DNA of 64,000 bases from NCBI GenBank assembly GCA_000092065.1, contig CP000601.1. The stretch is one strand, 5' to 3'. Below are positions 699-57,460 of the stretch, one piece after another. Each line of letters starts with the position of its first letter. The stretch's first letter is position 1. The position numbers were made by a program, and so were the translations under genes. The notes under the pieces were generated by a model. That model did not search any database. It had not been told where the DNA came from and saw only the letters and a list, made by a program, of their open reading frames with translations. The DNA is from Ostreococcus lucimarinus (lineage: Eukaryota).

Positions 699-924
699 TG
701 GGATGGATGTCTCGCGTCGCGTCTCGGAGTTCGGGACGAGGGGTTCGCGGCGTCGTGAAAAAGTGACAAAAAAATCAGGGAAGCCGAGCTCCCCCCATGG
801 GGGTGAATCTCACAGCGATAAATTTTTTAAAGTACTATCCGTCACCCCGAAACGACGAAAGTCACAGTGTTGTCGTGTCGCTTTTCCATCACGGACAATC
901 GGGTGTGGGAAAAAGTAAGGTGTG

Positions 925-934
925 ATGTCGACAC
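925..934. promoter_or_regulatory. ZDRE-like palindrome ATGTCGACAC (matches RTGTCGACAY) inside the left direct repeat
   Basis: Exact match to the degenerate 10-mer. It lies 3 nt beyond the 3' end of the tRNA-derived segment. Confidence 0.35.
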
Positions 935-936
935 AT

Positions 937-1036
937 CTCTTCCTGCGGGTTTCGATCCCGCGGCTTCCAGATCTCTATCGGAGCAGCCGTCATATTCGAC
1001 GGAGACTTTTTCCTAACAGTCTGACACTCTACCAGC
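937..1036 (-). pseudogene. 5'-truncated tRNA-Asn(GUU) copy (tRNA positions 15-73 including the 41-nt intron)
   Basis: Identical to 6872-6971 of the intact gene. It lacks the first 14 nt (5' acceptor strand and start of the D arm), so it cannot fold into a cloverleaf. Confidence 0.85.
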
Positions 1037-1066
1037 AAAATTGTTTACAGAGATACCGCGACGAGA

Positions 1067-1443
1067 TTGAAGCAATACAAGGAACTCGATGGGCACCTGA
1101 TGAACGCCTCCGTGTGGGACGAGTATTTGACCCCAGAGATGCTCAGTCTGTATAATCCCGAAACAGACCAATTCGAGGAGCCCAAGCACTGGCTAAATGG
1201 GAAGCGTGTAGGAATTGCAATACTGGCGGATGATGTAAAATCGAGTCCGTTGCTGTCTAACAAAGCCTGGCGCAACCTGTGTATCAAATGCCGCCACCTT
1301 GGATCCTTCCCTGACAGTTCTCCACCAATAGGGTGCTCGATTTTCTGCGCGAGGTCAAGGACGCCGACGCGACGCTCCCAGACAAGTTGAAAGCCGAGGT
1401 ACCGACCATGCTTCAGAAAGGCGTGCGCGCGTATCTGGATTAA
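1067..1443 (+). CDS. Hypothetical small protein, possibly two exons (1067/1100..1234 and 1318..1443)
   Basis: Two ORF segments in different frames join in phase 0 across a GT...AG interval at 1235-1317 (GTAAAA ... CTGACAG), giving ...GIAILADD|FSTNRVLDFLREVKDADATLPDKLKAEVPTMLQKGVRAYLD*. No family was recognised. The first ATG is at 1100. Confidence 0.25.
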
Positions 1444-1666
1444 GCTTCACAAGTACCGTGGTGTGGGTAACATCTGGGACATCTTATCGAAATAATTCAT
1501 CGATGTTCGCCAGGAGATCGAGGAACAGGTGCCGTAAATTACGAAGAGCGTTTCGATTTACAATTTATATGATCCTCTAGCTTGAAAAATAGATCTCCGT
1601 CAGTGGCCGTGGGTGTGTTTGCCACAACTTGATTTGATAGTAATTGACATTTTTTTACCGCTCTCA

Positions 1667-3196
1667 TTAGTGCGCGTGTGCGTGTGAGTCTCCGCCACCG
1701 CCACCGCCTGTGCAATGCTTGTGGTTGAGGAGCACGAGACTGATGGCAACAACGCCGACGATGAAGGTGAGAATGCTCGTCGCGCGAAGACGAGGTGAAG
1801 TGGCGCTCACTGATACTCGGGGCATGCACTCTGCGGCGGCGATTTGCAGATAGACTCCAGCACCGAAGGCGAGCAGCAGTCCATGCCAGAAGTCGTTGTT
1901 ATTTCCCGATCCAACACTAATGAGGACGCCAAGAATGACACTCAAGCCGGAAACGAAGTTTAAAGTCAGCGTCGGCAACGGCGCGAGATCGCCCTGGAAG
2001 GGGTCTACGAGCACCAAGTAGTCAGCAAGCTCTTGAGCGATTTCGTGATAGACGGTCGCGGCGGTGATCGACCATCCCATGGTACTGTCGCAGTTCAGAA
2101 AGCCGAAGCCAATGAAAATACCATCCACTAGGTTGTGCATGAAATCTCCAAGAATGATACCACTTCGAACGCGATACTTGTGTGAGTTACAAGTACAAGT
2201 ATCACAGTCATCTTGAGCGCCTTTGACTGCAAGTTCCGCATCGGTTGTCTTCGCTGTATTTCCAAGAGTTGGGAACACGACAGAGATACCAAAGTCGATG
2301 AAGTAGGCCATGAGAAAGCCGAAGATAGAAGCGGAAGCCCACCATGCGGTCTGCTCTGCCTCATCCGAGCCAGCAGGTTTGATTAAATGCGTGGCTTCGT
2401 AGAACATCAGATAAAACGCAGCCGAAAGAAGTGCGCCGGCGGCAAACGAGTTAATTGTGCAACTCACAGTTTCAGGGTACGCTTTCTGCTTCTTAGCGAT
2501 ACTCGGGATGAGAAAGACCACACCAGAAAGTGTGACGATATTGACGATAATTGCCGCCCCAATGGCGTTGGCCCACGGTTTTGATTTCGATTCGCTCACG
2601 GTGGATGCTTCGGGAAGTGAAGCTTTTGGCACCACGTCATCTCCGTGGAGGTCCTTGAGATAGTGCGCGTCGCGCTCGAACTCGGTGGGAACGTGCTCAG
2701 CGAAGATTGAGATCGCGTCGATGCCAGTCGTATTAATCTTAAACGGCGTCGTGTGCCAGGTGTTGTCAAATTCAAGGTTGACACACCCACTATCAGGTGT
2801 CAAAACACTATCTCGTATCTTAGCCGTCGTACAAGCTCCCCCGATTGCGGTATCACCGCTATCCTCGCGGGCTTCGAGCTCGTCGTGTCCGGCGGCGATT
2901 TCGTCGTAGATGACCATTTTCATGGTATCGGCGGCGTACTTATCGGCCACCTTTTGCGCCTGCCACACGTATTCATTCTCTGGCGTCTCAAAGATTCCAG
3001 CCCATTCGAATGCGTGCGCGCCGGACGCGTGCGCGCCGCGCTGCGCGAGCGCGCTCGCGACGATCGCGATGCCACCACCGAGCGCGCTCGCGCAGCGCAT
3101 CGTTCGCCCTCGTCGTCGCTCGACCGTCCTCGCACCGCGTGCGCGTTCGCGCGGCGGCATCGTCGTCTTCGTGTTCTTCGTGTTTTCGTTCGTCAT
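1667..3196 (-). CDS. ZIP-family (Zrt/Irt-like) divalent metal transporter
   Basis: ZIP signature helices HNLVDGIFIGFGF and HEIAQELADYLVL, several hydrophobic TM segments, a Cys/His-rich loop (DDCDTCTCNSHKY) and a His-rich C-terminus (DSHAHAH). Alternative starts are M13 (3160) and M33 (3100, followed by a signal-peptide-like MRCASALGGGIAIVASALA). Confidence 0.85.
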   Translation of the reverse strand: MTNENTKNTKTTMPPRERARGARTVERRRGRTMRCASALGGGIAIVASALAQRGAHASGAHAFEWAGIFETPENEYVWQAQKVADKYAADTMKMVIYDEIAAGHDELEAREDSGDTAIGGACTTAKIRDSVLTPDSGCVNLEFDNTWHTTPFKINTTGIDAISIFAEHVPTEFERDAHYLKDLHGDDVVPKASLPEASTVSESKSKPWANAIGAAIIVNIVTLSGVVFLIPSIAKKQKAYPETVSCTINSFAAGALLSAAFYLMFYEATHLIKPAGSDEAEQTAWWASASIFGFLMAYFIDFGISVVFPTLGNTAKTTDAELAVKGAQDDCDTCTCNSHKYRVRSGIILGDFMHNLVDGIFIGFGFLNCDSTMGWSITAATVYHEIAQELADYLVLVDPFQGDLAPLPTLTLNFVSGLSVILGVLISVGSGNNNDFWHGLLLAFGAGVYLQIAAAECMPRVSVSATSPRLRATSILTFIVGVVAISLVLLNHKHCTGGGGGGDSHAHAH

Positions 3197-3325
3197 CGTT
3201 TCCGTCGTCGTCGTCGTCTTCGCCGGCGTCGGTAAGTGCGGCTGCGCACAAACTAAAGCGGCATACGAACCGAACCGGCGCGATGGAGGGCGGTCGTTTA
3301 TAAGTCACGACTCGCGAACGACAAA

Positions 3326-3482
3326 ATGTCGACATCCGCCGCAGTGTCGACACATCTCGGTGGTACTTGGATATGTCGAAATATGTCGACATGTGCGTCG
3401 AGACGTTTTTCGTATATAGATGCATCACGGGGTTCAATGCGTACACGCGCGTGGGTAAATATGTCGACATGCGTGTCGACAT
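3326..3482. promoter_or_regulatory. Cluster of five exact RTGTCGACAY palindromes (ZDRE-like) in the bidirectional ZIP/COG0523 promoter
   Basis: Exact matches: ATGTCGACAT 3326-3335, GTGTCGACAC 3344-3353, ATGTCGACAT 3383-3392, ATGTCGACAT 3461-3470, GTGTCGACAT 3473-3482. There is also a 9/10 match, ATGTCGAAAT, at 3373-3382. Confidence 0.6.
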
Positions 3483-3546
3483 GTTTACGACGCGCGTCGC
3501 GACGCGATCCGTGATGGGCTTCGCGGGGCGTCGCGTACGACGATCC

Positions 3547-3589
3547 TCGACACGTGCACGACGCGAATCGTCGACACGTGCACGACGCG
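3547..3589. promoter_or_regulatory. Two copies of the 19-mer TCGACACGTGCACGACGCG (GTCGACAC half-site overlapping a CACGTG G-box) just upstream of the COG0523 start
   Basis: Copies at 3547-3565 and 3571-3589, with a 5-nt spacer. CACGTG occurs at 3551-3556 and 3575-3580. Confidence 0.45.
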
Positions 3590-3658
3590 CGCGCATCGCC
3601 GCACTTCGCGACGCCTCTTCGGCTCGTTCGCGCGCGGAGACGTCGATCGCCGTACATC

Positions 3659-5299
3659 ATGTCCACACCCGCCGCAATCGCCAATCATAATCGATTGCCG
3701 GTGACAACGCTGTGCGGGTTCCTCGGCGCTGGGAAGACGACAACTCTGAAACGCGTGCTCGAAGCTAAGCGAGACGCGAACGGAAAGTTTCGGTGTGCCG
3801 TCGTCGTGAACGACGTCGCGGAGTTGAACATCGACAAAAAATTAATCGATGATTCCGCTTTGCTGCAGAGCGACGAGGTGGTTGCCATGCAGAACGGATG
3901 CGTGTGCTGTTCGTTGAGCGGAGACTTTGTAAAACAAATCGGGGACATGGCCAAGAGTGGCAATTTTGACTACATGATCGTAGAGGCATCAGGAGTGTCG
4001 GAACCGGCGGAAATTGCGAAACTCTTCGCAAATTGTGAGGACGATCACGATCATGAAGCTGCGCACGTTGATGAGCATGAACATTTGAGCACACTGGCGC
4101 GGCTGGATACGTGCGTGACGGTCATCGCTGCAGGTGACTTTCTCGACATGATTGATTCTTTCAGGGCGTCAGCTGTGAACAGGCAGTCTTACTCTCAATT
4201 GTTGGCTGAACAGATAGAGTACGCGAATGTCGTCGTATTGAACAAGGTCGACACTGTCGATGACGAACAACTCGCCGAGATTAAAGCGCAGATACAACTT
4301 CTCAATTCACGTGCTGATATTCTTGAAGCTGTGAACGGCGCGATCGACGTTACGCGAATCGTCAATACAAAACTTTACAAAGAGAATGACTTTGCTGGTT
4401 TCATAACATGGGAACAAGAGATAGAAGCAACATCTGTGAAGTCATGCTGCGCCGGCGCTAGGGACAAAGGTGAGTCTCCATGCTGTAAGCGAGCTCGCAT
4501 GAGAGAAACAGCCTTAAGCGAGGTCACGCTTGCACCAAGTTCTTCCCAAACACGTCACGATAGTCGGTTCGGTATTACGTCTTTCATTTACCGAGCCAGA
4601 AGACCTTTTCATCCCAAACGGTTTTTAGGCTCATTTGTCGAGCGCTTCTTCAGCTCCCTCGAGGCCGATGACCGTGATGAAGAAAAAGATGAAGAGACAC
4701 CAAGTGTAGACTGGAGTGCAGTGAAAGATATTCGAGCGCGACAAGAAGCGATGAAACTCAAGCGCCGTAAAAGGGAAGGTGAAATTGGTGTGCTGCTACG
4801 TTCGAAGGGTGTAACGTGGCTCAGTGATGCCCACGACTTGATAATTGTTTTCAGTCAGGCTGGTAATATTTACTCTCTCGAAGGATCAAGCCGATGGACC
4901 GCGCTGAATAAAAATGCTTGGGTCGGCTCACAGGGGATAAAGCAAGAACTTCGTAAAGACTGGGAGGGGCCTTATGGTGATCGCCGACAAGAACTGGTGT
5001 TCATTGGCAAGGATCTTAAATACGATGAAATTCAATCAACGTTGGACTCTTGCCTCTTGACCGACGAAGAATTCGAAATGGGTTCTGATGGCTGGAGAGC
5101 AGTCATGGGTGATGTCTTTCTAGACGAAGACGACGAAGACGAAGACGACGAAGTCGATGACGAAGACGACGAAGAAATCGACGAAGATTTGGTCGACGAC
5201 GAGGAGATCGAAGAGGAGATCAGGCCGCAACCCACTTCAAAGTCGAAGGCAAAACCAAAGGCAAAGTCGGCGCCCTCTCAAAACGACGGCTTAGTCTGA
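3659..5299 (+). CDS. COG0523/CobW-family GTPase, eukaryotic ZNG1-type putative zinc metallochaperone
   Basis: Walker A GFLGAGKTTT, CxCC metal motif GCVCCS, His-rich stretch EDDHDHEAAHVDEHEH, and a CobW_C-like region (RFGITSFIYRARRPFHP ... GDRRQELVFIGKDL ... LDSCLLTDEE) followed by a long acidic tail. The ATG at 3659 was chosen over the upstream alternative-start ORF (3554). Confidence 0.9.
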   Translation: MSTPAAIANHNRLPVTTLCGFLGAGKTTTLKRVLEAKRDANGKFRCAVVVNDVAELNIDKKLIDDSALLQSDEVVAMQNGCVCCSLSGDFVKQIGDMAKSGNFDYMIVEASGVSEPAEIAKLFANCEDDHDHEAAHVDEHEHLSTLARLDTCVTVIAAGDFLDMIDSFRASAVNRQSYSQLLAEQIEYANVVVLNKVDTVDDEQLAEIKAQIQLLNSRADILEAVNGAIDVTRIVNTKLYKENDFAGFITWEQEIEATSVKSCCAGARDKGESPCCKRARMRETALSEVTLAPSSSQTRHDSRFGITSFIYRARRPFHPKRFLGSFVERFFSSLEADDRDEEKDEETPSVDWSAVKDIRARQEAMKLKRRKREGEIGVLLRSKGVTWLSDAHDLIIVFSQAGNIYSLEGSSRWTALNKNAWVGSQGIKQELRKDWEGPYGDRRQELVFIGKDLKYDEIQSTLDSCLLTDEEFEMGSDGWRAVMGDVFLDEDDEDEDDEVDDEDDEEIDEDLVDDEEIEEEIRPQPTSKSKAKPKAKSAPSQNDGLV

Positions 5300-5761
5300 T
5301 GTCTTTCTAGGTGACACTGAAGCGGAACAGGGTGGAGATGTGGACTCGGGCAACTCTTCCGACATGTAAGCTTGTCCTTTATAGTGAGCCCACACCGATG
5401 TGAGCGCAAGTCATTTTTATGCACACAGTGACATCTTCATCGAATACCAGACGTGGTTGCCAGCGGCTGCGCGCGGTCAAGATAGCGCGACGAAGGTCGG
5501 CAATAAGCTCAAGGACTTCTTCAAGAAGGAAAAGGGCCACAGGGTCCCAATGGAAGAGGACCACCTGAGGCAAGGTAGAGACGAGAAGGGCGTCTATTGG
5601 GAAATTCACCGCGACGGGTGCTTCGAGTGGCTGAAGGACAATGGGTACACAGGGGAGACGGAGCTCGCGCCGGCGGTCGTCTGGTGCTCATACTAATTTT
5701 GTAATTCGTACATTTGCAATATGAAGACTCAACGAGACACCAAAAAGACCATGGTTTGGAT

Positions 5762-5952
5762 CCTGACGAAATGACGAATGACGAACTGTTTTCATAAAGG
5801 TCCACACTGTTGCTTGTCATAGATCTAAAATAAAAATAAACATTAAAATATTTTAACATTTCGTCATTTTCATCATTGGTACACACAAAGTGTCACCGAA
5901 CGACGGGTTGACGAATTTGTGGACGACAAAACAAGTTCGTCATTTCGTCAGG
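5762..5952. repeat. Inverted repeat (CCTGACGAAATGACGAA[TGACGAA]CT / AGTTCGTCATTTCGTCAGG) flanking about 145 bp of very AT-rich spacer
   Basis: Left arm 5762-5787, right arm 5934-5952. The arms are 19 nt complementary once a 7-nt duplication in the left arm is allowed. A further TTCGTCATTTT motif lies near 5866. Confidence 0.4.
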
Positions 5953-6130
5953 TCTCGACGGATCACGAACGTCCAGGTGTGAAATCAGGCGGTTCGGTAT
6001 CTACATTCCGGACCTTGCAGCCCACGCAGCGATACGCGTACCTATGGTCTCTCGGATGTGACTGCAAACCGCAGGAGGAGGCACTTTTGGCAACAATATT
6101 TTCTTAGGGATAGATAGGTAACCAGGACAA

Positions 6131-6628
6131 ATGCCGTCGGGATGCGTGTACGAAATGTTTAGCGATAATGCGAAATGTAACAAAACGTACATCGGATCGA
6201 CGACGGGTTCGCTCAGAGCGCGCCTTGCCTCGCATAAATACGCACGACATCCAATCTTCACGTTTGGCGACGCGGACGTGAGAGTTCTCGAAAAGGACAT
6301 TCCAGCTGGAGAGCTCCATCAACGTAAAGGTGCCTACATGAGAGAGAAGCGTGACGGCTTATTCAACTCCCGAGCTGCTGGACGCAGCCAGAAACACGCG
6401 TGCCGCGAGAACGTGGACGAGAGTCCAGCCTACAGCAGAGCTCAATATACGCCGAAGCGGGACGGCGGCGATGGTAACTACAGACAACTCAATTATTACA
6501 AGCAGCACGCAAAAGGAATACTGCGCAAGACGTGCCTCAAGAATGCCCGAGCGCGCGGCACGCTGCCTTCGAAGCGCAGTCTCGACAAGTATCAATTTAC
6601 GGTAGATGAGTTACGCGGCTTGGCTTGA
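6131..6628 (+). CDS. GIY-YIG nuclease-like protein (homing-endonuclease-like)
   Basis: N-terminal GCVYEMF-x9-YIGSTTGSLRARLASHK matches GIY...YIG...R...H spacing. It is followed by VRVLE (candidate catalytic Glu) and an LFNSRAAG segment. The C-terminal half is basic. The ORF is lower in GC than most of the window. Confidence 0.55.
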   Translation: MPSGCVYEMFSDNAKCNKTYIGSTTGSLRARLASHKYARHPIFTFGDADVRVLEKDIPAGELHQRKGAYMREKRDGLFNSRAAGRSQKHACRENVDESPAYSRAQYTPKRDGGDGNYRQLNYYKQHAKGILRKTCLKNARARGTLPSKRSLDKYQFTVDELRGLA

Positions 6629-6844
6629 CCACTTCACTCACACGATTGGTTCTGGAGAAATCTTACATGCGGTACATCAACGTCGATGTGCGGTTTTATC
6701 ATGTTGGGGTGCCCCAACTCAAAAAAAAAGTTTATTTTTATTACTCATAGCGATAAATTTTTTAAAGTACTATCCGTCACCCCGAAACGACGAAAGTCAC
6801 AGTGTTGTCGTGTCGCTTTTCCATCACGGACAATCGGGTATGGG

Positions 6845-6849
6845 AAAAA
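6845..6849 (-). terminator. Candidate RNA polymerase III terminator (T5 on the minus strand), 22 nt downstream of the tRNA
   Basis: AAAAA on the plus strand is TTTTT on the tRNA strand. It is the first T-run after the discriminator base. Confidence 0.5.
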
Positions 6850-6859
6850 GTAAGGTTTG

Positions 6860-6869
6860 ATGTCGACAC
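6860..6869. promoter_or_regulatory. ZDRE-like palindrome ATGTCGACAC in the right direct repeat, 3 nt downstream of the tRNA 3' end
   Basis: Exact RTGTCGACAY match, duplicated from or to 925-934. Confidence 0.35.
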
Positions 6870-6871
6870 AT

Positions 6872-6985
6872 CTCTTCCTGCGGGTTTCGATCCCGCGGCT
6901 TCCAGATCTCTATCGGAGCAGCCGTCATATTCGACGGAGACTTTTTCCTAACAGTCTGACACTCTACCAGCTGAGTTAAGGAAGA
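6872..6985 (-). tRNA. tRNA-Asn (anticodon GUU) with a 41-nt intron at the canonical 37/38 position
   Basis: Manual cloverleaf: acceptor TCTTCCT/AGGAAGA, D arm ACTC-AGCTGGTA-GAGT, anticodon stem TCAGA/TCTGG, loop CTGTTA|intron|A, variable loop AAGCC, T arm GCGGG-ATCGAAA-CCCGC, discriminator G. The mature length is 73 nt. The T loop has A54/A60, unusual for an elongator tRNA. Confidence 0.8.
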
Positions 6986-49381: not shown

Positions 49382-52300
49382 ATGCGGGCCCCGTCGCGCG
49401 CGCCGTGCGCGTCCGCGCGCCCGGAGGCCGGCGTCGTCGACGCCCTCGATGATCTCGCCGCCGTCGACGCCCGCGCGTGCGGCATCGGCAAGCTCACGAT
49501 CGCGCACGACGACGACGACGACGACGCGCGAGGTCTCCGCCATCGCGACCGCGGCGCGTTCGCCCTCGATTTGCGCGCGTGGTCGTTCACCGCGCGCACG
49601 CAGCCGGTCCGCGCGCTCGGGGCGTGCGCGCGAGACGCGTCCGTCGACATGCGCGTGCCGTTCAGGGACGAATACGAGCGACACAGGGCGTCGCGACCGG
49701 ACGAACGCGCGCCGCGAGGGGCGAGTTGGCGCATCCATCGAGTGCGAGGATGGCGCTTCGACCTGCGCGCGCTGTACGAGGAGGTGAAAAGACGCGGTGG
49801 CGCGGACGCGATCGATGGAAATCAAGGCTGGCGCGAGGTCGCGGAGGCGATCGGGGCGCACGGACGCGGATGCGCGGCGGGACACGCGGCGAGAGCGCTG
49901 CACGGGGCGTGGCTGGAGGCGTTCGCGCGCGACGCCAAGCGAAGAGAAGACGCGGTGAAGAGCGCGCAGTTCGACGCGGTGAAGGGAGAGATCGAACAAG
50001 ATGACGCGCTGGCGATCGATGCGCTGTGTGGGCTCGAATTTGGGGCGTCGGGCGCGCCCGAACGGCGAGTCAAGGTGGAAAATGTGCGTAATTCGTGCCA
50101 TATCTTCTTCGCGCGGGACCGGGATGACGGCGAATCGCACGCGTTCGCGGCGCGTGCGACGCGCGCGCGCGATGATGGGCGTCGCGATGACGTGCGACTG
50201 ACTTTTACGGCGCGTGTTTTCGCGACGCAGGGCCTCGATCTCGTCGCCTCGCAGCTCGCGGACGCGCCCGAGGGCGACGCCGACTGCGACGTGTGCGGCG
50301 CGAGCGGGAACGAAGACGCGATGATCCTGTGCGATGGGTGCGATCGAGGGTGCGTATACGACAATGCCACGCGAGAACGCGCGCGTGAAAATTATCTCGA
50401 TCGTTCGGACGCGCGTTCGGGGAGAGAGAGCGCTCGCGCGGCGCGCGAGGGCGCGGCGAACGCGCGCGTGGGCGACGGTTAGACGTGGGGTTTAGAGGCG
50501 CGCGGGGGAGAAGGAGCCGCGAAGGAGCGACGAGACTGACGAATGATGCGCGCGTAGGTCACATATGTACTGCTTAACGCCGAAGATGACTGAAGTGCCG
50601 AGTGGAGAGTGGTTTTGTGGACGATGCGAAGAGATTGACGCGGAGGTGGAGCGATTGAGCGCGGATGAAGGGACGCAGTTTACGCTCGGCGATTTCAACG
50701 AGGCGTGCATAGAATTTGATACGGCGTTCTTTGGCGAGGACGCCAAGCGAACTGGGATCGATATGCAGGTGATTGAGGAGTGTTTCTGGCGAATGGTTGA
50801 AGATGCGAGCTCGGTGGATGATGTTTGCGAGGTCAAATGCGGCACGGCGATTGACACGACAAAGTACGGAAGCGGGTTCCCGAGACACGGCGAAGCGCTT
50901 CAGGTAAAGATTGACGGCGTGAGCCCGGAATCTATCAAGCGCTGGTCAGAGTCGAAATGGAATCTCAACAACGTCGCGCGCGCGAGTGGGGAAAAGTCGT
51001 CGCTACTGGGCGCGTTGAAGGATGACGTGGCGGGCGTGACGACGCCATTCTTAGAAGTCGGAAGCACGTTTAGTTCCACGACTTGGCGTCGAGAAGAGCA
51101 TAACATGTACAGTATCACTTACAATCACTGGGGTGCCGCGAAACTGTGGTACTGCGTGCCGGCGAGTGCAGCGGACAAGTTGGAAGAATGCTTCCAGAAG
51201 GTGATGCCCGACGTCTACGAGGCGCACGTCAACGATTTGGGAAGCGTCTTTACGATGCTCTCGCCGAGCTTCTTGATGAGCGCGGGAGTGCCCGTGCACA
51301 CGTTGGAGCAATTCCCAGGAGAATACGTGGTGACGTATCCCGGGGCGTACTACGCGTCGTTCAACTGTGGATTGAACTGCACGGAGAGCGTCAACTTTGT
51401 GCCCGCTGACTGGCTCCCAGAGGGCTCGGCGAGCGTGGAGAGAAACCGATCGTACGCCAAGCGTTCATTGTTTAGTCACGACGAGTTGGTTTGCAGAGTA
51501 GCAAACAATCCTAGTTCGAGCATAGCGCCGCACTTGTGGCCCGAGATTGCGCGCTTGTACGCTGAAGAGGCAAACGGTCGCGCCGAGCTTTTCGCGTCTG
51601 GCGTGACGCGCAGCGCGCAAATGACGTCAGCAGACGACGACGACGACGACGATGGCTGCGAAAAGCCTCGTAAAGTACGATCTAGGTTTGACGATGCATC
51701 GAACTCTGGATCCGATGAGTGCGTTGTTTGTCGACACATTTTGTACTCGTCTGGCGTCGGGTGCTCGTGCGACGAGACGCGCAAGGCGTGCTTGCGACAC
51801 GTCAACGACTTGTGCAAATGTGCGATGTCGAAGAAGACGATGTTTTACAGAGAAACAGTGGCTGATTTAGAAAGTCTGGTGAAGAAGACGGAGAAGGCGC
51901 TTTCTCAGAAGGAACTAGCCAGCTTAAAATCCAAGCACAGCGACTTGGACTCAGTCACAGTGAACAAGAATCTCGTCAAGAAGGCTCAGGCTTGGGTGAA
52001 ACGAGTGGGCGAAGAGCTCGTCAAACCACCTTTGCCGCCGCTGGACAAGATGAGAAATTTACTCGCTGCGGGTGAAGAGTTTATTTGGGGTGGTGCTGAT
52101 ATGAAGGCGGCTCGAGAAGCGTACACTCGCGTGACGAACGCCGTCGCGTGGCAGACGAGTCTTGTGGCGCTGAAGCAAAGGCTTGGATCCAGTGCTGGTG
52201 CCGAGGCCGCGCACGATGACGCTGGTGAAGCGCGATTGAGATTGAACAGACTAAAAGAGCTCCTTGACAACCCACCGGTACCGATGCCTAAGGCTGATAC

Positions 52301-54224
52301 TCAACCTTTCCGCGATTTGCTCGCGGCGGGCTTGAAATTGGAGGAACGCATCAAGGCGGCTCTCGCCGAGGTACCGAATCCATCTCCTCGCGCTTGTACG
52401 ACGCTTCAAACTGAAGCGAATAAGTTTGGTGTGGAAGTCCCTTCATATAAAAAGCTGAAGGACGTCATCGTTAGAGCAGGCGCGTGGTCCACGAAGGTGC
52501 GCGGCGCGCTTCCAGGACGACGACAACTCCCGCCGCGCGAGGAACTAGCGAATGCTCGAGAGATCGAGGCGTTATACGAAGAGGCGCATGGATTACCCGT
52601 TCAGCAGAGCGAACTCTTGACTTTGCGCAAATCTTTAGAAGAGTTGAATTTTTGGCGCGCAAAGTCTGAGTCGCTGTTCGTCGCCAAGGTTGACGTGGAA
52701 GAAGCCGAGGCGCTTCTCAAGGAGGGCATGGCGTTGTCAACAAAACTCGACGAGGTCGACAGACTAGCCGATCAAATCAAAGCTGTCAAAGTGTGGGCCG
52801 ATCATGCTCGAGCGAGTGATTATCCGGGAGCAAGAGTGACGGATTTGCACATGCTTCTCGTCGAGGGTGAAAAGTTTAGCGTGCGAGTGGACGAAGTCGA
52901 GTGGTTGCGAAACCGTATCGTCGTCCGGGAGCTGGCAGAGAAATTGAAGGACATGGTTTCATCGAAGAAATATCCGCTCGCCGAAGTCGAAGCGGCCGTG
53001 CGGGCGGGTAACGAGTTCCTCGACTCCGAAGATAAAGAGGTTGCCCCAGATGAAGAAGCGCTGCTGGCGCAGTGCGAGAGCCACATCAACGCGGCGAAGA
53101 AGTGGAACGAGCGCGCGGCGGTGATGCTCAAATCTCTCGATAGTAAGGACCGACCGTCACTCGAAGACGCCGCGTCGCTCATCCGCGAAGGAAGCTCGAT
53201 TCCAATCTTTCTGAATGGATTCGACGTGCTTTCAGAAGCGGTCAATGTAGCCAAGTCTTGGTTGGATCGTGCACAACCTTGTTTGAAGGGAAAGCAGCTC
53301 ACTCGTCGCGGTGTGTCAAATCCGATTCCGCCGCTTTCCGAGGCGCAAGAGCTCATGAAAGAGTCTTCGAACTTGAAATTGTTTGTCAAGGAAGTTGAAG
53401 CTTTGGAAGAACGCGTCGAAGCCGCAGAAGAGTGGGACGTGGACGCGAAGGACGCCATCGAGCGCTGGCGAGAAGACGGCGCCGAGGTGACGTTGACCGA
53501 GCTTGAACTTTCGCACGAAGACTTTGGATTAGAATTACCAGCCATGGAGACAGTTCGCATTCGTTTAAAGTCGCTCAAGTGGGAAGAACGCGTCGCTAAG
53601 ATCATTGCACCCAAGGCGAAGCTCGTCGAGGACACCGTTTTGGACGAGCTCAGGGAAGAAATCGACGTGCTTCAAGACTTGAAAGAGGATCTTGTCGCTG
53701 AAATCATGAAACGGTACACGATTGTGGACGAATGGCGCAAGAAAGCGGATCGTTTGCTCGATCCTCCTCTCCTTGAAGACGGTCGATTGGCTCCGAGTGC
53801 ATCACCGGAGGAAATAGACGCCCTCATCGCCGAAGGCAAGGCACTTCCCGCTGACGTCTCGAAGGTAGAAGACCTCGAGGCGTCGTTGGCGGATCACGCA
53901 CAGTGGGTCGACACCGTTCGTAAGTGCTTGAACAGTGTCGCTGAAGGTCGATCTCGCCCTTCGATTGACGAATTATACGATCTTCTAGCGGAGGTGGAAG
54001 ATTTGACCTTCAAGTGCTCAGAGAGACAAGCGCTCACAAATGCGTGCAACGCCGCCACGGCGTGGACGGAGAGGCTCAACGCGTTGCTCTGGGCAAACGA
54101 TCAGGGTGAAGTCAAACAAGAAAAAACGCTTATCGAAATGTTGAGCAATGTTCTTGATTCCATCAAAGCTGGTGTGGAAGACATCACCGGGACTGGCGAA
54201 CCGCCGGAGACGGAGGAGGGTTAG
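49382..54224 (+). CDS. KDM5/JARID-type protein (JmjN-like, ARID, PHD, JmjC, C5HC2, PLU-1 region); exons 49382..50349 and 50558..54221, ending at an in-frame TAG
   Basis: ARID (WRFDLRALYEEVKRRGG...GWREVAEAIG). PHD1 is split by an intron (CDVCGASGNEDAMILCDGCDRG|SHMYCLTPKMTEVPSGEWFCGRC). JmjC (FSSTTWRREEHNMYSITYNHWGAAKLWYCVP ... GEYVVTYPGAYYASFN). C5HC2 (CVVCRHILYSSGVGCSCDETRKACLRHVNDLCKC). Confidence 0.85.
50350..50557 (+). other. Spliceosomal intron (208 nt, phase 2) inside the PHD1 coding region of the KDM5-like gene
   Basis: GG|GTGCGT donor, GAGACTGACGA branch-like motif and GCGCGTAG| acceptor. Splicing restores the C-x2-C-x4-H-x2-C spacing (CDGC-DRGS-H-MY-C). Confidence 0.85.
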
Positions 54225-56087
54225 TTCTGCCTTTGTCGACAAGCTGGAGGAATTCAAATGGTTGGATGTGATGATTGCGGTGACTGGTATCACTTAAAAT
54301 GTATCAATGTGACGCCTACTATGGCAAAGACGATGCACAATTACATCTGTCCGCCATGCATCGCGAAGAGTGGCAAGGCGAGCGCACTCTCGTTGGATAC
54401 GTATCGCTCGGTGCATCGCACCAATCGCCCAAACGTCATGCTTTTGCGAGAACTCCTCGGTGAAGCGCAGCGATTTCCTGGAGAAGTGCCAGAAGAAGCC
54501 GTGTTGAATCAAGTCATCAATACTCACGACGCGTGGCGATTGGAAGTACGAAAGACTTTGCATAGAAAGAGTATGAAGGAAGCACACGACAACGCCATCA
54601 GTCAAGCTTCGAAGATTGCCCAAGAAGCAGCGATGAGAGAATCTGAGGAACGCACACGACGAATCGCCGAAGCGTCGCTCGCGGCGACTGCAGAGAACCC
54701 CAATCCTCCAGCTTCTCTCACGCCATTACAGCAAGTCATGCTGATGGGTCAAGCTGTCACGTTCGCCGCAACGCAGCGCACGCACGCGTTGAACATTTCG
54801 CCGTGTTCGCAGGAGATTTCAGATGTCGTCACAAAGCAGCTCGGGCAACTTCAACAGCTCGCCATGCAACTCGCGATGTGCCAAGCTCAAATTCACATGG
54901 CTCCAGTTCGGTCTAGGCCCCACATCCTCCACGTCTTGATGATGCAGCAACAGCATCTAAAGATGACAAACGAGCACGAGGAAGAGCTGGCAAATGTTGG
55001 CGCTAGCAACTGGCTCATGGAAGCGACTCTGCAACTATCTGGAATGTCTGGCATGATGCCGCCGCCGACGGCGCAAGACACCGGCAAAGAACCTTCAACA
55101 TCCACGGGTCATGGTAGTCCAAGCGATATGTCTGCTCAGTTGAAGACGAACGAACCGATGATGGTTCCGCAGCAGTTCATGTTGCAACCGGCCATGCCAT
55201 CGCTTGTCGGCGACGCGTCTGGAATGCCCAAGCAAGAGATGGATTACACGTATGACATTCCTCGAAAAGATAATGTCGATCCAGCGCTGCAAGTGTACGC
55301 GGGCATGAAGGGTGCTCTGGCGATGGAGCTGGAACCTGTTGAGGAGACGCTCGCGTTGATGCGCGAAGTGTGCGGTCCGGCGTGGAGAGAACAAGCCACG
55401 CGGCTCATGACTGGTGCGCCGTTCCCGAGGTTGATCAAGCTTCACGAGCTCAAGGAATCTGCCATGGCTGCTGGTCTTTGCCCTGGTGCCGGCATTGATC
55501 CTTTGGCCGATCGCGCGCACGCGTTGGAGGTTGCTGGACAAATCTGGCTCGAACGCGCCGCCGCCGTCGTGCAAGACAAAACGATTCCTATCGAGGCGGC
55601 GCAGTTGCTGCTTCAAGAGGGTCGATCTTTGCCTTTATACTTGAAGGAGGAGCTCGAGGAGTTGGGAGAGCGATGCGAACTGTATTGCGTTTGCCGAAGC
55701 GCGTACGACGCTCTCAGGCCGATGATTTGCTGCGATCGATGCGATGGTTGGTTTCATTACGAGTGCATCGGCATGCAGTCGCCGGCGCCGGGCGAGGAAG
55801 ACGAAAACGCCGAAAACGTCAAGTTTGCCTGCCCAGAGTGCTGCGCGGCGCAAGGTATTCCGTACGTTCCGTTCCGTCCAGCGCCGAAGGACACGGACAA
55901 AGCGCCGGAGCGAGCCGCGCCTCCGCCGGCTGAAGAAGCTCCGGAGCCGCCAAAGACGGAAGAAGAAGCGAAGCCGCCCGCTAAACCAGAACCGGAAGTC
56001 GCGGACAACAAGAAGAAACGAAAAACGGTGGAGCCGACTCCGCCTGCTAATAAAAGTACCTCTAGTCGCAGCAGAAGACGAAAGTAG
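54225..56087 (+). CDS. In-frame continuation of the KDM5-like gene (two C-terminal PHD fingers, Q/M-rich region, K/E/P-rich tail)
   Basis: Same frame as 50558-54224. FCLCRQAGGIQMVGCDDCGDWYHLKCINV...YICPPC starts at the codon right after the TAG. The second PHD is YCVCRSAYDALRPMICCDRCDGWFHYECIG...FACPEC. The ATG at 54258 would truncate the first PHD. Confidence 0.6.
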   Translation, partial: FCLCRQAGGIQMVGCDDCGDWYHLKCINVTPTMAKTMHNYICPPCIAKSGKASALSLDTYRSVHRTNRPNVMLLRELLGEAQRFPGEVPEEAVLNQVINTHDAWRLEVRKTLHRKSMKEAHDNAISQASKIAQEAAMRESEERTRRIAEASLAATAENPNPPASLTPLQQVMLMGQAVTFAATQRTHALNISPCSQEISDVVTKQLGQLQQLAMQLAMCQAQIHMAPVRSRPHILHVLMMQQQHLKMTNEHEEELANVGASNWLMEATLQLSGMSGMMPPPTAQDTGKEPSTSTGHGSPSDMSAQLKTNEPMMVPQQFMLQPAMPSLVGDASGMPKQEMDYTYDIPRKDNVDPALQVYAGMKGALAMELEPVEETLALMREVCGPAWREQATRLMTGAPFPRLIKLHELKESAMAAGLCPGAGIDPLADRAHALEVAGQIWLERAAAVVQDKTIPIEAAQLLLQEGRSLPLYLKEELEELGERCELYCVCRSAYDALRPMICCDRCDGWFHYECIGMQSPAPGEEDENAENVKFACPECCAAQGIPYVPFRPAPKDTDKAPERAAPPPAEEAPEPPKTEEEAKPPAKPEPEVADNKKKRKTVEPTPPANKSTSSRSRRRK

Positions 56088-56135: not shown

Positions 56136-57362
56136 TCAACCGTCCAGGTGCTCGTCCCATCCCAGGTCTCGTTTCGGCTTGCGCCTACCGACCAACTTGG
56201 CCGCGTCCAGTTCGGTCAACAATTCAATTTCGTCGAGTGTTTCCTCGCTCACATCGATGTCGTCCGTCACCGCGAGCTTTTGACCCTTTCTATGACGCTC
56301 GACGAGTTCTTCGAGATATCCTTGCTTTGCGTAGTTCGGTATCAACCTAGACATGTACACGCCGCGCAAAATACGTTTTTCTTCCTCAGTCAAATCGCCG
56401 TGAAACCCTCGGCGGTTGATCCGGTCCGTCACGGCGTGCGACATCACGAGCGCGGCGGCGACGGAAATGTTCAAAGACTCGGTGAAGCCAAACATCGGAA
56501 TGTACACGGCGCCATCCCGCAGCGCTCGCGCCTCGTCCGAAACCCCCTCGCGCTCGTTCCCAAACACCACCGCCGTGGGCACGGTCCAATCGTAATGCGA
56601 CAGCGGCTGCGCGCCGTCAAACTCAGTCGTAAGAACGCGGTATCCTTTCGCCTTCGCGACTCTGAGCGCGCGTTCCGACGTCTCAAACTGCTCCACGTGT
56701 TGCCACTTCAGCGCCCCTCCCGACGTCCTCCCGCTCGCCTTGAACGACAGCCCCTTCGAGCTCACGATCGACGCGCACCCGATCCCCAGCGCCTCCGTCG
56801 TCCGACACACCGCCAAGATATTGCCGACGTCGTAGACGCCCTCTAGAATCGGCAGCAACGAAAAACTTCTATGCTCCAAAACGTTTTCCAGCCGCATGCG
56901 TCGCTCTTCCCCGACCATCGCCGTCGCGAGCGCCACCATCGTCTCCGTCTCGCACGTCGCCCTCGCGAACGCGAATCCATCGCCGTACGGGAATCTTTCC
57001 CTCTCGTCCTCGTTCGCGCGCGTCCCCAAATCTTCCCGCCGCGCCCGCACCAGCCCGTGAAACTCCAGCGCGTCCGGCGCCCACGCGCGCTGCCTTCGGT
57101 GCGCCTTCGCGCTCTTCGTCGCCACCGCGCCCGTGCGCGCCACCGCGCGCGTCGGTCGCGGCGTCGTGCGCTTCACGACGACGTCGTGCGGGCCGGCGTG
57201 CGCGCGCGACCCCGGTTCCGACACCGATTCCGATTCCGCCGCGTCGTCGTCGCGCGCGCGTCGCGTCGCCGGTCGAGCGACGCGCGCGGCGCGCTCGCGA
57301 GCGTCGCGTCGATTCGCGTCGATTCGCGATCCCGCGCCCGCGATCGCGCGCGTCGACGCCAT
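56136..57362 (-). CDS. SpoU/TrmH-family RNA 2'-O-ribose methyltransferase
   Basis: RMRLENVLEHRSFSLLPILEGVYDVGNILAVCRTTEALGI, AVVFGNEREGVSDEA and IPMFGFTESLNISVAAALVMSH (SPOUT motifs 1-3). Arg-rich, presequence-like N-terminus. Confidence 0.8.
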   Translation of the reverse strand: MASTRAIAGAGSRIDANRRDARERAARVARPATRRARDDDAAESESVSEPGSRAHAGPHDVVVKRTTPRPTRAVARTGAVATKSAKAHRRQRAWAPDALEFHGLVRARREDLGTRANEDERERFPYGDGFAFARATCETETMVALATAMVGEERRMRLENVLEHRSFSLLPILEGVYDVGNILAVCRTTEALGIGCASIVSSKGLSFKASGRTSGGALKWQHVEQFETSERALRVAKAKGYRVLTTEFDGAQPLSHYDWTVPTAVVFGNEREGVSDEARALRDGAVYIPMFGFTESLNISVAAALVMSHAVTDRINRRGFHGDLTEEEKRILRGVYMSRLIPNYAKQGYLEELVERHRKGQKLAVTDDIDVSEETLDEIELLTELDAAKLVGRRKPKRDLGWDEHLDG

Positions 57363-57384
57363 TCGAATCGCCGCGCGACGCGAA

Positions 57385-57394
57385 GTGTCGACAT
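57385..57394. promoter_or_regulatory. Isolated exact RTGTCGACAY match (GTGTCGACAT) in the divergent promoter between the SpoU methyltransferase and the 57461 gene
   Basis: Single copy, so functional relevance is unknown. Confidence 0.2.
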
Positions 57395-57460
57395 CGCGTC
57401 GCGCGGCGATTCGAATCGCGTCGCGCTCGAACGGCGTCGCGTCCTCGCGACGCGCGCGCG

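Follow-up and report, generated by a model that had tools for sequence, protein, structure and literature searches.

A conserved array of plant-type zinc-deficiency response elements in a divergent ZIP/COG0523 promoter of Ostreococcus lucimarinus, and a candidate bZIP regulator linked to it in sister lineages

A 64-kb stretch of the Ostreococcus lucimarinus genome (64,000 nucleotides of contig CP000601.1, assembly GCA_000092065.1; hereafter the window) contains a divergent promoter that separates the genes for a ZIP-family metal transporter and a COG0523 (G3E GTPase) metallochaperone and that holds five perfect copies of RTGTCGACAY, which in land plants is the response element for zinc deficiency (ZDRE). 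ZDREs are conserved in the corresponding promoters of other Ostreococcus lineages, where they are shared with a bZIP gene whose predicted DNA contacts are those of the plant F-group bZIP proteins, and the array is probably part of a zinc or metal-deficiency circuit. In land plants the ZDRE is a 10-bp imperfect palindrome that is bound by bZIP19 and bZIP23 and usually occurs twice in promoters of the ZIP4 type (PMC5476651, PMC9643250). According to the founding phylogeny and to reviews, the F-bZIPs originated in land plants together with the zinc circuit that they control, in connection with the colonisation of land (PMC5476651, PMC9643250), and both Castro 2017 (PMC5476651) and a 2022 review (PMC9643250) report that green algae, O. 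lucimarinus included, have no F-bZIP. Our literature searches for ZDREs or for this bZIP in algae returned no description of either. The conserved array, together with the linked bZIP with F-type contacts in sister species, argues that this circuit, or one closely copying it, is present outside land plants, where the literature reports it to be absent.

The ZDRE array

The first-pass annotation of the window had placed five exact RTGTCGACAY sites (at 3326, 3344, 3383, 3461 and 3473), a 9/10 match at 3373 and two units combining a half-site with a G-box in the 462-bp spacer between the end of the ZIP reading frame (3196) and the COG0523 start codon (3659), and had counted eight perfect sites overall. 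A motif scan of the window recovers all of these, the other three perfect sites lying at 925, 6860 and 57385, and Pfam matches bear out the identities given to the two flanking genes (Table 1). The five sites of the array are packed into 157 bp, with the closest of them 130 bp upstream of the ZIP start codon, and segments 3379-3408 and 3457-3486 are local duplicates inside the array (87% identity). The spacer was also considered as an RNA element, for which the best match was to a Burkholderia small RNA with 24 bits against a threshold of 74, and this was discarded as noise.

The motif is considerably more frequent than expected. Dinucleotide shuffles of the window (n=100) give an expectation of 0.54 sites, with a maximum of 3 and none of the 100 reaching 8, and Markov models of order 1-6 predict 0.26-1.3. 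The sites at 925 and 6860 are a single site copied with the 99%-identical 228-nt direct repeats that contain them, and 57385 lies in a separate palindrome, so the independent signal is the five-site cluster. Specificity was counted over seven lineages and 151.5 kb, of which the spacers flanking ZIP, bZIP or COG0523 genes (module spacers) constitute 5.8 kb (3.9%). These contain 24 of the 29 perfect ZDREs, corresponding to a ~120-fold density (binomial 1e-29, a value that is only indicative because the intervals were drawn after the data had been inspected and the loci were picked through their ZIP, bZIP and COG0523 genes). All 24 core octamers (TGTCGACA) in the module spacers have the R and Y flanks, and among these sites the base preference and information content are gone directly beyond the 10 bp, which indicates that the recognised unit is the plant 10-mer and not just a SalI-like palindrome.

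Conservation and promoter haplotypes

The window was compared with further contigs (L001-L017 and L089), among them contigs retrieved because they encode ZIP orthologues or the linked bZIP described below; L013 is O. tauri, and L015 and L016 are from a distant GC-rich picoeukaryote. The ZIP orthologues of six other Ostreococcus lineages share 73-89% protein identity with that of the window, and perfect ZDREs are present just upstream of ZIP in every lineage examined, as pairs or triplets. The 18-bp-spaced pair at 3326/3344 recurs in L005/L012, L006/L007, L011 and L014, and in all strain variants of the window species. On chromosome 6 of the O. tauri reference genome (GCA_000214015.2), three perfect ZDREs are found between ZIP and bZIP at a 12-bp spacing, the same as that of the second pair in the window, and no TGTCGACA octamer occurs elsewhere in 18.6 kb of the locus. 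Alignment of six Ostreococcus promoters shows two ZDREs (TGTCGACA with the R/Y flanks) to be invariant, with variation both in the 8-bp spacer between them and in the sequences to either side; all of the Ostreococcus ZIP-orthologue promoters that were retrieved carry perfect ZDREs as the only invariant blocks of that kind. The distant L015/L016 genome segments have only two perfect sites, both of them upstream of a ZIP gene that is not orthologous (20-30% identity).

A second element accompanies the ZDREs. The near-palindrome GAGTCAYGACTC, composed of two inverted TGACTC half-sites, is located 15-25 bp from the ZDRE pair on the side toward ZIP, and is kept in all six of the aligned Ostreococcus lineages (including L005, L006, L011, L013 and L014). 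It may be the site of a second factor or a core-promoter element.

Two haplotypes of the promoter occur within the window species. One, with five sites, is present in the window, L004, L008 and L010; in the two-site form (L001, L002, L009 and L089) the segment corresponding to 3375-3626 is swapped for 313 bp of unrelated AT-rich sequence (L001 487-799), such that three of the five array sites are missing and the conserved pair is retained. As judged from the six-lineage alignment, the ancestral parts are the first pair and the ZIP-proximal blocks GAACCGGCG and GAGTCAYGACTC only. The G-box/half-site repeats at 3543-3589 were considered as a part of the conserved circuit and rejected, as they are present neither in other lineages nor in the two-site haplotype; being confined to one haplotype, their role is uncertain. 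Further variation is seen beyond the promoter, where the same-species contigs L004 (from 11632) and L008 depart from the window at the end of the COG0523 gene (window 5290 onwards) and encode a 684-aa COG0523 protein. The genes that come next in them, a RING-box gene and one of 584 aa, are both absent from the window; L001, by contrast, tracks the window as far as 6222.

A bZIP gene linked to the ZDREs

In L005/L012, L006/L007, L011, L013 (O. tauri) and L014, a bZIP gene (209-260 aa) is divergently oriented from ZIP across the ZDREs, and in four of these five Ostreococcus lineages the next gene after bZIP encodes a COG0523 protein (430-435 aa). In the distant L015/L016 the bZIP gene is instead convergent (tail-to-tail) with the non-orthologous ZIP. 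The linked protein exceeds the Pfam threshold for bZIP_2, and the AlphaFold model of the O. tauri member has a single long helix of 64 residues with a predicted local distance difference test (pLDDT) score above 90; only this helix is confidently modelled, and the C-terminal motif described below scores 57-65. Small open reading frames (ORFs) beside the module have no Pfam match.

The basic region of the algal family reads NR(A/V)AVRRYRER(K/R)R, which gives N-A-V-Y-R at the five canonical contact positions; the F-group basic-region signature NREAVRKYREKKK (N-AV-YR) is thus found in the linked bZIP of the sister lineages, and not in a gene of the window. Within a published table of 47 sugar-beet bZIPs, N-A-V-Y-R is present in only two, BvbZIP9 and BvbZIP43 (NREAVRKYR; PMC11319121), and these are also the top matches when a profile of the algal family is compared with all 47 (22.1 and 18.4 bits, with the other 45 at or below 9.4). 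The same profile scores Arabidopsis bZIP19 and bZIP23 at 34-35 bits and seven other plant groups at no more than 22, and C/EBP (N-A-V-S-R) scores lower than either bZIP19/23 or ATF4. The DNA-reading residues of the algal family are of the F type. With so short a domain no tree would be decisive, and overall sequence similarity cannot distinguish an origin in an F-bZIP ancestor from convergence. Half of the O. tauri bZIPs (4 of 8) had been left unassigned by Correa 2008.

Several cysteine and histidine residues are invariant in the family, namely a Cys at the junction of the basic region and the zipper (ECE), a His in the segment ELKH, and those of the C-terminal motif F(T/V)H(G/D)DxCPC (C63, H86, H173, C177 and C179 in O. 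tauri numbering). The family is narrow, in that a HMMER search of 1.84 billion representative proteins returns only 37 matches, comprising the Ostreococcus family, its L015-type orthologue P0304, P0306, P0319, and animal ATF4-like proteins. P0306 is the strongest of the matches outside the family and has 762 residues, with two F-type bZIP domains of the form GNR(A/E)AVRRYREKKKA (GNRAAVRRYREKKKA and GNREAVRRYREKKKA) and Cys/His-rich stretches. Its gene is located at 8001-10289 of L017, from a marine picoeukaryote, and its N-terminal stretches include CVHAHHTCGE ... ECWHVHRI, which we take to resemble the zinc-sensor motif of the plant proteins; there is no ZDRE or ZIP gene near this locus. P0319, a bZIP with the sequence NREAVRNYR, was considered as an extension of the pattern and set aside, since its contigs have neither a ZIP neighbour nor a ZDRE. 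We also note that P0295-P0299 and P0305 are frameshifted or mutated metagenomic gene calls of the L006-type bZIP, one of which, on a 112-kb contig, has RGYR in place of RRYR; they reflect faulty assembly or else pseudogenes of some lineage.

A proposed metal-deficiency circuit and its alternatives

We propose that a bZIP belonging to a small family restricted to picoalgae of the Mamiellales type, with the contact residues of land-plant bZIP19/23, binds the five sites and activates ZIP and COG0523 under metal shortage, most likely that of zinc, and we regard this as probable, if by no means assured. Two checks that the first-pass annotation had suggested, a comparison of orthologous promoters and a search for an F-like bZIP, both come out in favour of its reading. 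A bZIP dimer would occupy each RTGTCGACAY palindrome, and the paired or tripled sites could make the activation of the two divergent genes cooperative or graded as metal becomes scarce. In most Ostreococcus lineages the bZIP gene shares a ZDRE promoter with ZIP, and the factor would therefore regulate itself and amplify its own expression. The metal sensor could be formed by the invariant Cys and His residues listed above, among them the zipper-junction Cys and those of the C-terminal FTHGDxCPC motif, in place of the plant motif, and at metal sufficiency zinc bound to this Cys/His set would switch the factor off, an assumption drawn from plant analogy. In the window lineage the bZIP/COG0523 segment would have been exchanged for another COG0523 paralogue, with the factor presumably encoded elsewhere in the genome of the species, and in one haplotype the ancestral pair would have grown to five sites.

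Several observations weigh against this proposal. The first-pass annotation had envisaged a factor of the F-bZIP type, and the part of this that stands is the existence of a ZDRE-linked bZIP with N-AV-YR contacts; the N-terminal bipartite Cys/His zinc-sensor motif is absent from all members of the algal family in our alignments, which therefore fall outside the F group in the strict sense, and tblastn finds no bZIP in the 64-kb window or in the same-clade contigs L001-L004, L008-L010 and L089. ATF4 (N-A-A-Y-R) scores about as well with the algal profile as bZIP19/23 do, and the HMMER search described above returned no canonical land-plant F-bZIP at E<0.001. Five of the 29 perfect ZDREs fall elsewhere than in the module spacers. 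Metagenomes were also scanned without bias for pairs at the 18-bp spacing (TGTCGACAY-N8-RTGTCGACA), which returned at least 120 loci, and among the matches listed only 12 are Ostreococcus ZIP/bZIP/COG0523 loci, with the remainder being soil, gut or minisatellite sequences without zinc-gene neighbours; with this much noise the scan does not define a regulon, and it was set aside as evidence in either direction. The COG0523 protein of the window is a different paralogue from those linked to bZIP in other lineages, with which it shares ~30% identity. In favour of the proposal, ZDREs are located upstream of both paralogues (in the window, and at L014 3622/3640, L005 6836 and L012 2768), and the presence of ZDREs at two unrelated COG0523 lineages argues for selection on co-regulation. 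Finally, the sole expression evidence for the linked genes was obtained under iron limitation and not zinc limitation, and our literature search for data on zinc limitation in Ostreococcus found none.

These expression data are from the O. tauri cluster, which we matched by gene order and lengths to ostta06g02290 (CobW-like, 1296 nt), ostta06g02300 (bZIP, 630 nt) and ostta06g02310 (ZIP, 1422 nt), and were generated by RNA sequencing after one week in AQUIL medium with 54 versus 1080 nM Fe-EDTA (Lelandais et al. 2016, PMC4855317). Low iron raises COG0523 by a log2 fold change of 3.5, ZIP by 2.0, and bZIP by 2.1 and 1.6 at two of four time points, with ZIP being near-silent in replete medium (PMC4855317). 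The linked O. tauri genes are thus co-regulated and metal-responsive, and the iron data do not identify the metal that is sensed. It is conceivable, though we think it unlikely, that the same elements and bZIP respond to limitation for iron or for divalent metals in general, with the ZIP protein acting as an IRT-type importer of Fe, Mn and Zn. The three genes were indeed found as low-iron-induced, with the ZIP classed by the authors as putative iron transport (PMC4855317), and in L006/L007 a ferric-reductase gene and an SBP_bac_5 gene are found ~1.8 kb away from the module, an extra ZDRE lying in between. However, induction was seen after one week in EDTA-buffered AQUIL and not hours after chelation, when there was little change (short-term log2 fold changes of 0.55, -0.63 and 0.20; PMC4855317), which fits a secondary effect on zinc status, and the same study describes strong zinc-iron cross-talk (PMC4855317). 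Moreover, the identical element is zinc-specific in plants, and in bacteria, Chlamydomonas and diatoms the induction of COG0523 characteristically marks limitation for zinc or cobalt (PMC2770081, PMC9010474).

We consider it more doubtful still that the sites are regulatory but read by some other factor, such that the likeness to the ZDRE and the presence of the bZIP are coincidental, the latter being a co-regulated target or an unrelated ATF4-like stress factor. The binding of the sites by the bZIP is a prediction, its domain is as close to ATF4 as to the F-bZIPs and ostta06g02300 is annotated as ATF4/5-like in O. tauri (PMC4855317), the window clade retains the sites without an adjacent bZIP, and the conserved GAGTCAYGACTC block suggests that other factors act on the promoter. 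Against this, a 10-bp palindrome fits a bZIP dimer, the only plant group to share the N-AV-YR contacts is the one with known binding to this non-ACGT element, and the bZIP stays linked to a ZDRE-bearing ZIP even where that ZIP is not orthologous. A non-regulatory cluster, arising by chance in a CpG- and GTCGAC-rich genome (GTCGAC occurs 79 times in the window) or by the local duplication noted above, with three of the five sites missing from a common haplotype, seems to us extremely improbable and effectively refuted, as no shuffle equals the observed count, the sites are confined to ZIP/bZIP/COG0523 spacers and invariant in the footprint alignment amid diverging surroundings, and the R/Y flanks are complete.

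Relation to known systems

The closest known system is the land-plant bZIP19/23-ZDRE-ZIP circuit (Assuncao 2010), with which the algal module shares the element, its position upstream of ZIP, its occurrence in two or more copies, and the N-AV-YR contacts (NREAVRKYR). The ZDRE is defined in plants by the binding of an F-group bZIP dimer, which is lost when TGTCGACA is changed to TGTAGACA, and by the induction that it confers in zinc deficiency; the algal sites conform to the RTGTCGACAY consensus and occur in multiple copies upstream of ZIP, and their candidate counterpart to the plant dimer is the linked bZIP with predicted F-type contacts. There are also clear differences, in that the host is a chlorophyte picoalga and the algal factor has the C-terminal FTHGDxCPC motif and not the N-terminal Cys/His motif. 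The genes for the factor, the transporter and COG0523 are in one compact cluster, with the factor gene itself on a ZDRE promoter, and COG0523 is among the candidate targets, whereas the plant targets are ZIP and NAS genes.

In a green alga, Chlamydomonas reinhardtii, the zinc-deficiency regulon includes the same two classes of genes, the main responders to zinc limitation being ZRT transporters and the COG0523 genes ZCP1 and ZCP2. We know of no cis-element or regulator defined for this regulon. Low zinc induces COG0523 proteins in both Chlamydomonas and diatoms (PMC9010474), and Castro 2017 found no F-bZIP in Chlamydomonas (PMC5476651). Relatives of the Ostreococcus bZIP family were confined to marine picoeukaryotes in a full-library search.

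Yeast Zap1 is an activator of the zinc-deficiency response that is subject to positive autoregulation and has ZRT1 among its targets. It differs in being a C2H2 zinc-finger protein that recognises an unrelated element (ACCTTNAAGGT) and in having unclustered targets. The layout that we propose here for most Ostreococcus lineages is nonetheless like that of yeast, in which a palindromic element lies upstream of the ZIP importers and of the factor's own gene (PMC6162548). The connection between bacterial COG0523 proteins and zinc was made through their clustering with zinc-uptake genes under palindromic operators (Haas 2009, PMC2770081). The regulator in that case, Zur, is a Fur-family repressor acting on operons, whereas here it would be a eukaryotic bZIP, presumed to be an activator, acting on divergent monocistronic genes. 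The COG0523 protein of the window also shares the G-domain, CxCC and CobW_C architecture of the diatom protein ZCRP-A, a COG0523 protein induced by zinc or cobalt limitation (PMC9010474); the likeness is one of architecture, and ZCRP-A is without a known regulator or element.

A broader proposal, which we put forward tentatively and hold to be possible but short of probable, is that a zinc circuit consisting of an N-AV-YR bZIP, the ZDRE and ZIP predates the split of chlorophytes and streptophytes, with the DNA-reading head and its element frozen for around a billion years and the sensor module exchanged. Plants would then sense metal through an N-terminal Cys/His motif, and Mamiellales through a zipper cysteine together with an H-x3-CPC tail at the C terminus. 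The circuit would survive in the picoalgae as a self-contained, autoregulated three-gene cassette of sensor, importer and chaperone, and this is perhaps mobile, since it is bracketed in the window by tRNA-derived direct repeats and its position differs between species.

Other features of the window

The coordinates of the promoter elements, genes and repeats are given in Table 1. The window COG0523 protein, whose GCVCC motif is of the CxCC type, also has a His/Asp/Glu-rich insert and an acidic tail. Its closest named relative is from Cymbomonas (53%), with stramenopiles next, and it is 43-56% identical to COG0523 proteins of stramenopiles and diatoms. Both it and the window ZIP protein have matches in metagenome assemblies only, and none in annotated NCBI proteomes.

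The two direct repeats bracket the entire ZIP/COG0523 segment (809-6971), an arrangement that resembles a segmental duplication or an insertion with a tRNA gene as its target. ARAGORN gave no call for the tRNA-Asn at 6872-6985, which was identified through Rfam. The G+C content of the first 10 kb of the window, bracketed segment included, is 0.48-0.56, compared with 0.60-0.70 in most of the remainder, and the neighbours of the module differ in each species. Two orphan ORFs, at 5400-5696 (+) and 6131-6628 (+), are located in this low-GC stretch. The second has a weak resemblance to a GIY-YIG nuclease N-terminus (Pfam E 0.009, sub-threshold); a viral origin was considered for it, and no relative was found among IMG/VR viral contigs.

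The isolated site at 57385 is probably unrelated to the array. The palindrome around it occupies a bidirectional promoter of 98 bp, flanked on one side by a SpoU methylase gene and on the other by the gene for a 523-aa protein, the latter having no Pfam match. A KDM5/JARID-like demethylase appears to be encoded nearby as two adjacent ORFs on the same strand (50565-54224 and 54258-56087), one with JmjC, C5HC2 and PLU-1 domains and the other with PHD and a weak, sub-threshold PLU-1, and a TGTCGACA octamer is present at 54234 in the 33-bp gap between them. An intron or a frameshift could account for the split, or the two could be truly separate genes. The genome of the window is compact and appears to be intron-poor, and a SpoU-type protein encoded in the window shares a 90%-identity cluster with a protein of O. 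lucimarinus CCE9901. In the other lineages, single perfect ZDREs outside the module spacers include those at L006 5648, L007 5840 and L014 741, which may mark further members of the regulon; one of the outside ZDREs is between ZIP and a ferric-reductase gene, and another is followed 115 bp downstream by a 156-aa ORF that has no match in Pfam.

Table 1. Coordinates of the promoter elements, flanking genes and repeats in the 64-kb window.
Feature	Position	Strand	Description
Left 228-nt direct repeat	809..1036		ATGTCGACAC at 925; holds a tRNA-Asn copy truncated at its 5' end (3' 100 nt only)
ZIP-family metal transporter gene, 509 aa	1667..3196	-	Pfam Zip PF02535, 1.2e-21, residues 212-487; transcribed away from the spacer
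ZIP/COG0523 divergent promoter	3197..3658		462 bp; copies in L004 and L008 identical
GAACCGGCG block	3272..3280		Largely kept in ZIP-proximal promoters (six-lineage footprint alignment)
AAGTCACGACTC	3302..3313		Form taken in the window by the conserved GAGTCAYGACTC near-palindrome; between ZIP and the ZDRE pair
ZDRE pair 1	3326..3353		ATGTCGACAT, 8-bp spacer, GTGTCGACAC; starts 18 bp apart
9/10 site and ZDRE 3	3373..3392		ATGTCGAAAT (3373) followed directly by the perfect ATGTCGACAT (3383); five-site haplotype only
ZDRE pair 2	3461..3482		ATGTCGACAT-GC-GTGTCGACAT; starts 12 bp apart; one haplotype of the species only
Two tandem 23-nt units	3543-3565 and 3567-3589		ATCsTCGACACGTGCACGACGCG, holding TCGACACGTGCACGACGCG; a GTCGACAC half-site overlaps a CACGTG G-box in each
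COG0523 (G3E GTPase) metallochaperone gene, 546 aa	3659..5299	+	Pfam cobW 5e-41, CobW_C 1e-18; GCVCC
Right 228-nt direct repeat	6744..6971		99% identical to the left; contains ATGTCGACAC at 6860, 3 nt past the tRNA 3' end
tRNA-Asn (GUU)	6872..6985	-	42-nt intron; Rfam tRNA 49 bits, E 1e-9; 3' 100 nt inside the right repeat
Isolated GTGTCGACAT	57385..57394		Centre of a ~54-bp near-perfect palindrome (TTCGAATCGCCGCGCGACGCGA ... TCGCGTCGCGCGGCGATTCGAA), within 57340-57420

Implications

No metal-responsive cis-element or zinc regulator has so far been defined for the marine green picoalgae, and for O. tauri 'no obvious iron regulon' was the conclusion of Lelandais et al. (PMC4855317). The present analysis provides a candidate regulator, ostta06g02300, together with an exact cis-element, both in a model alga that can be transformed, such that the origin of plant zinc sensing becomes directly testable. 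It also opens the questions as to which residues make a bZIP read sites with a TCGA core versus those with an ACGT core, and how a sensor module is swapped. The five-site and two-site haplotypes constitute a natural experiment on whether the number of sites tunes the response. Finally, the ZDRE-driven ZIP and COG0523 transcripts are a possible marker of zinc stress for abundant ocean phytoplankton, which would bear on the debate over zinc limitation at sea (PMC9010474).

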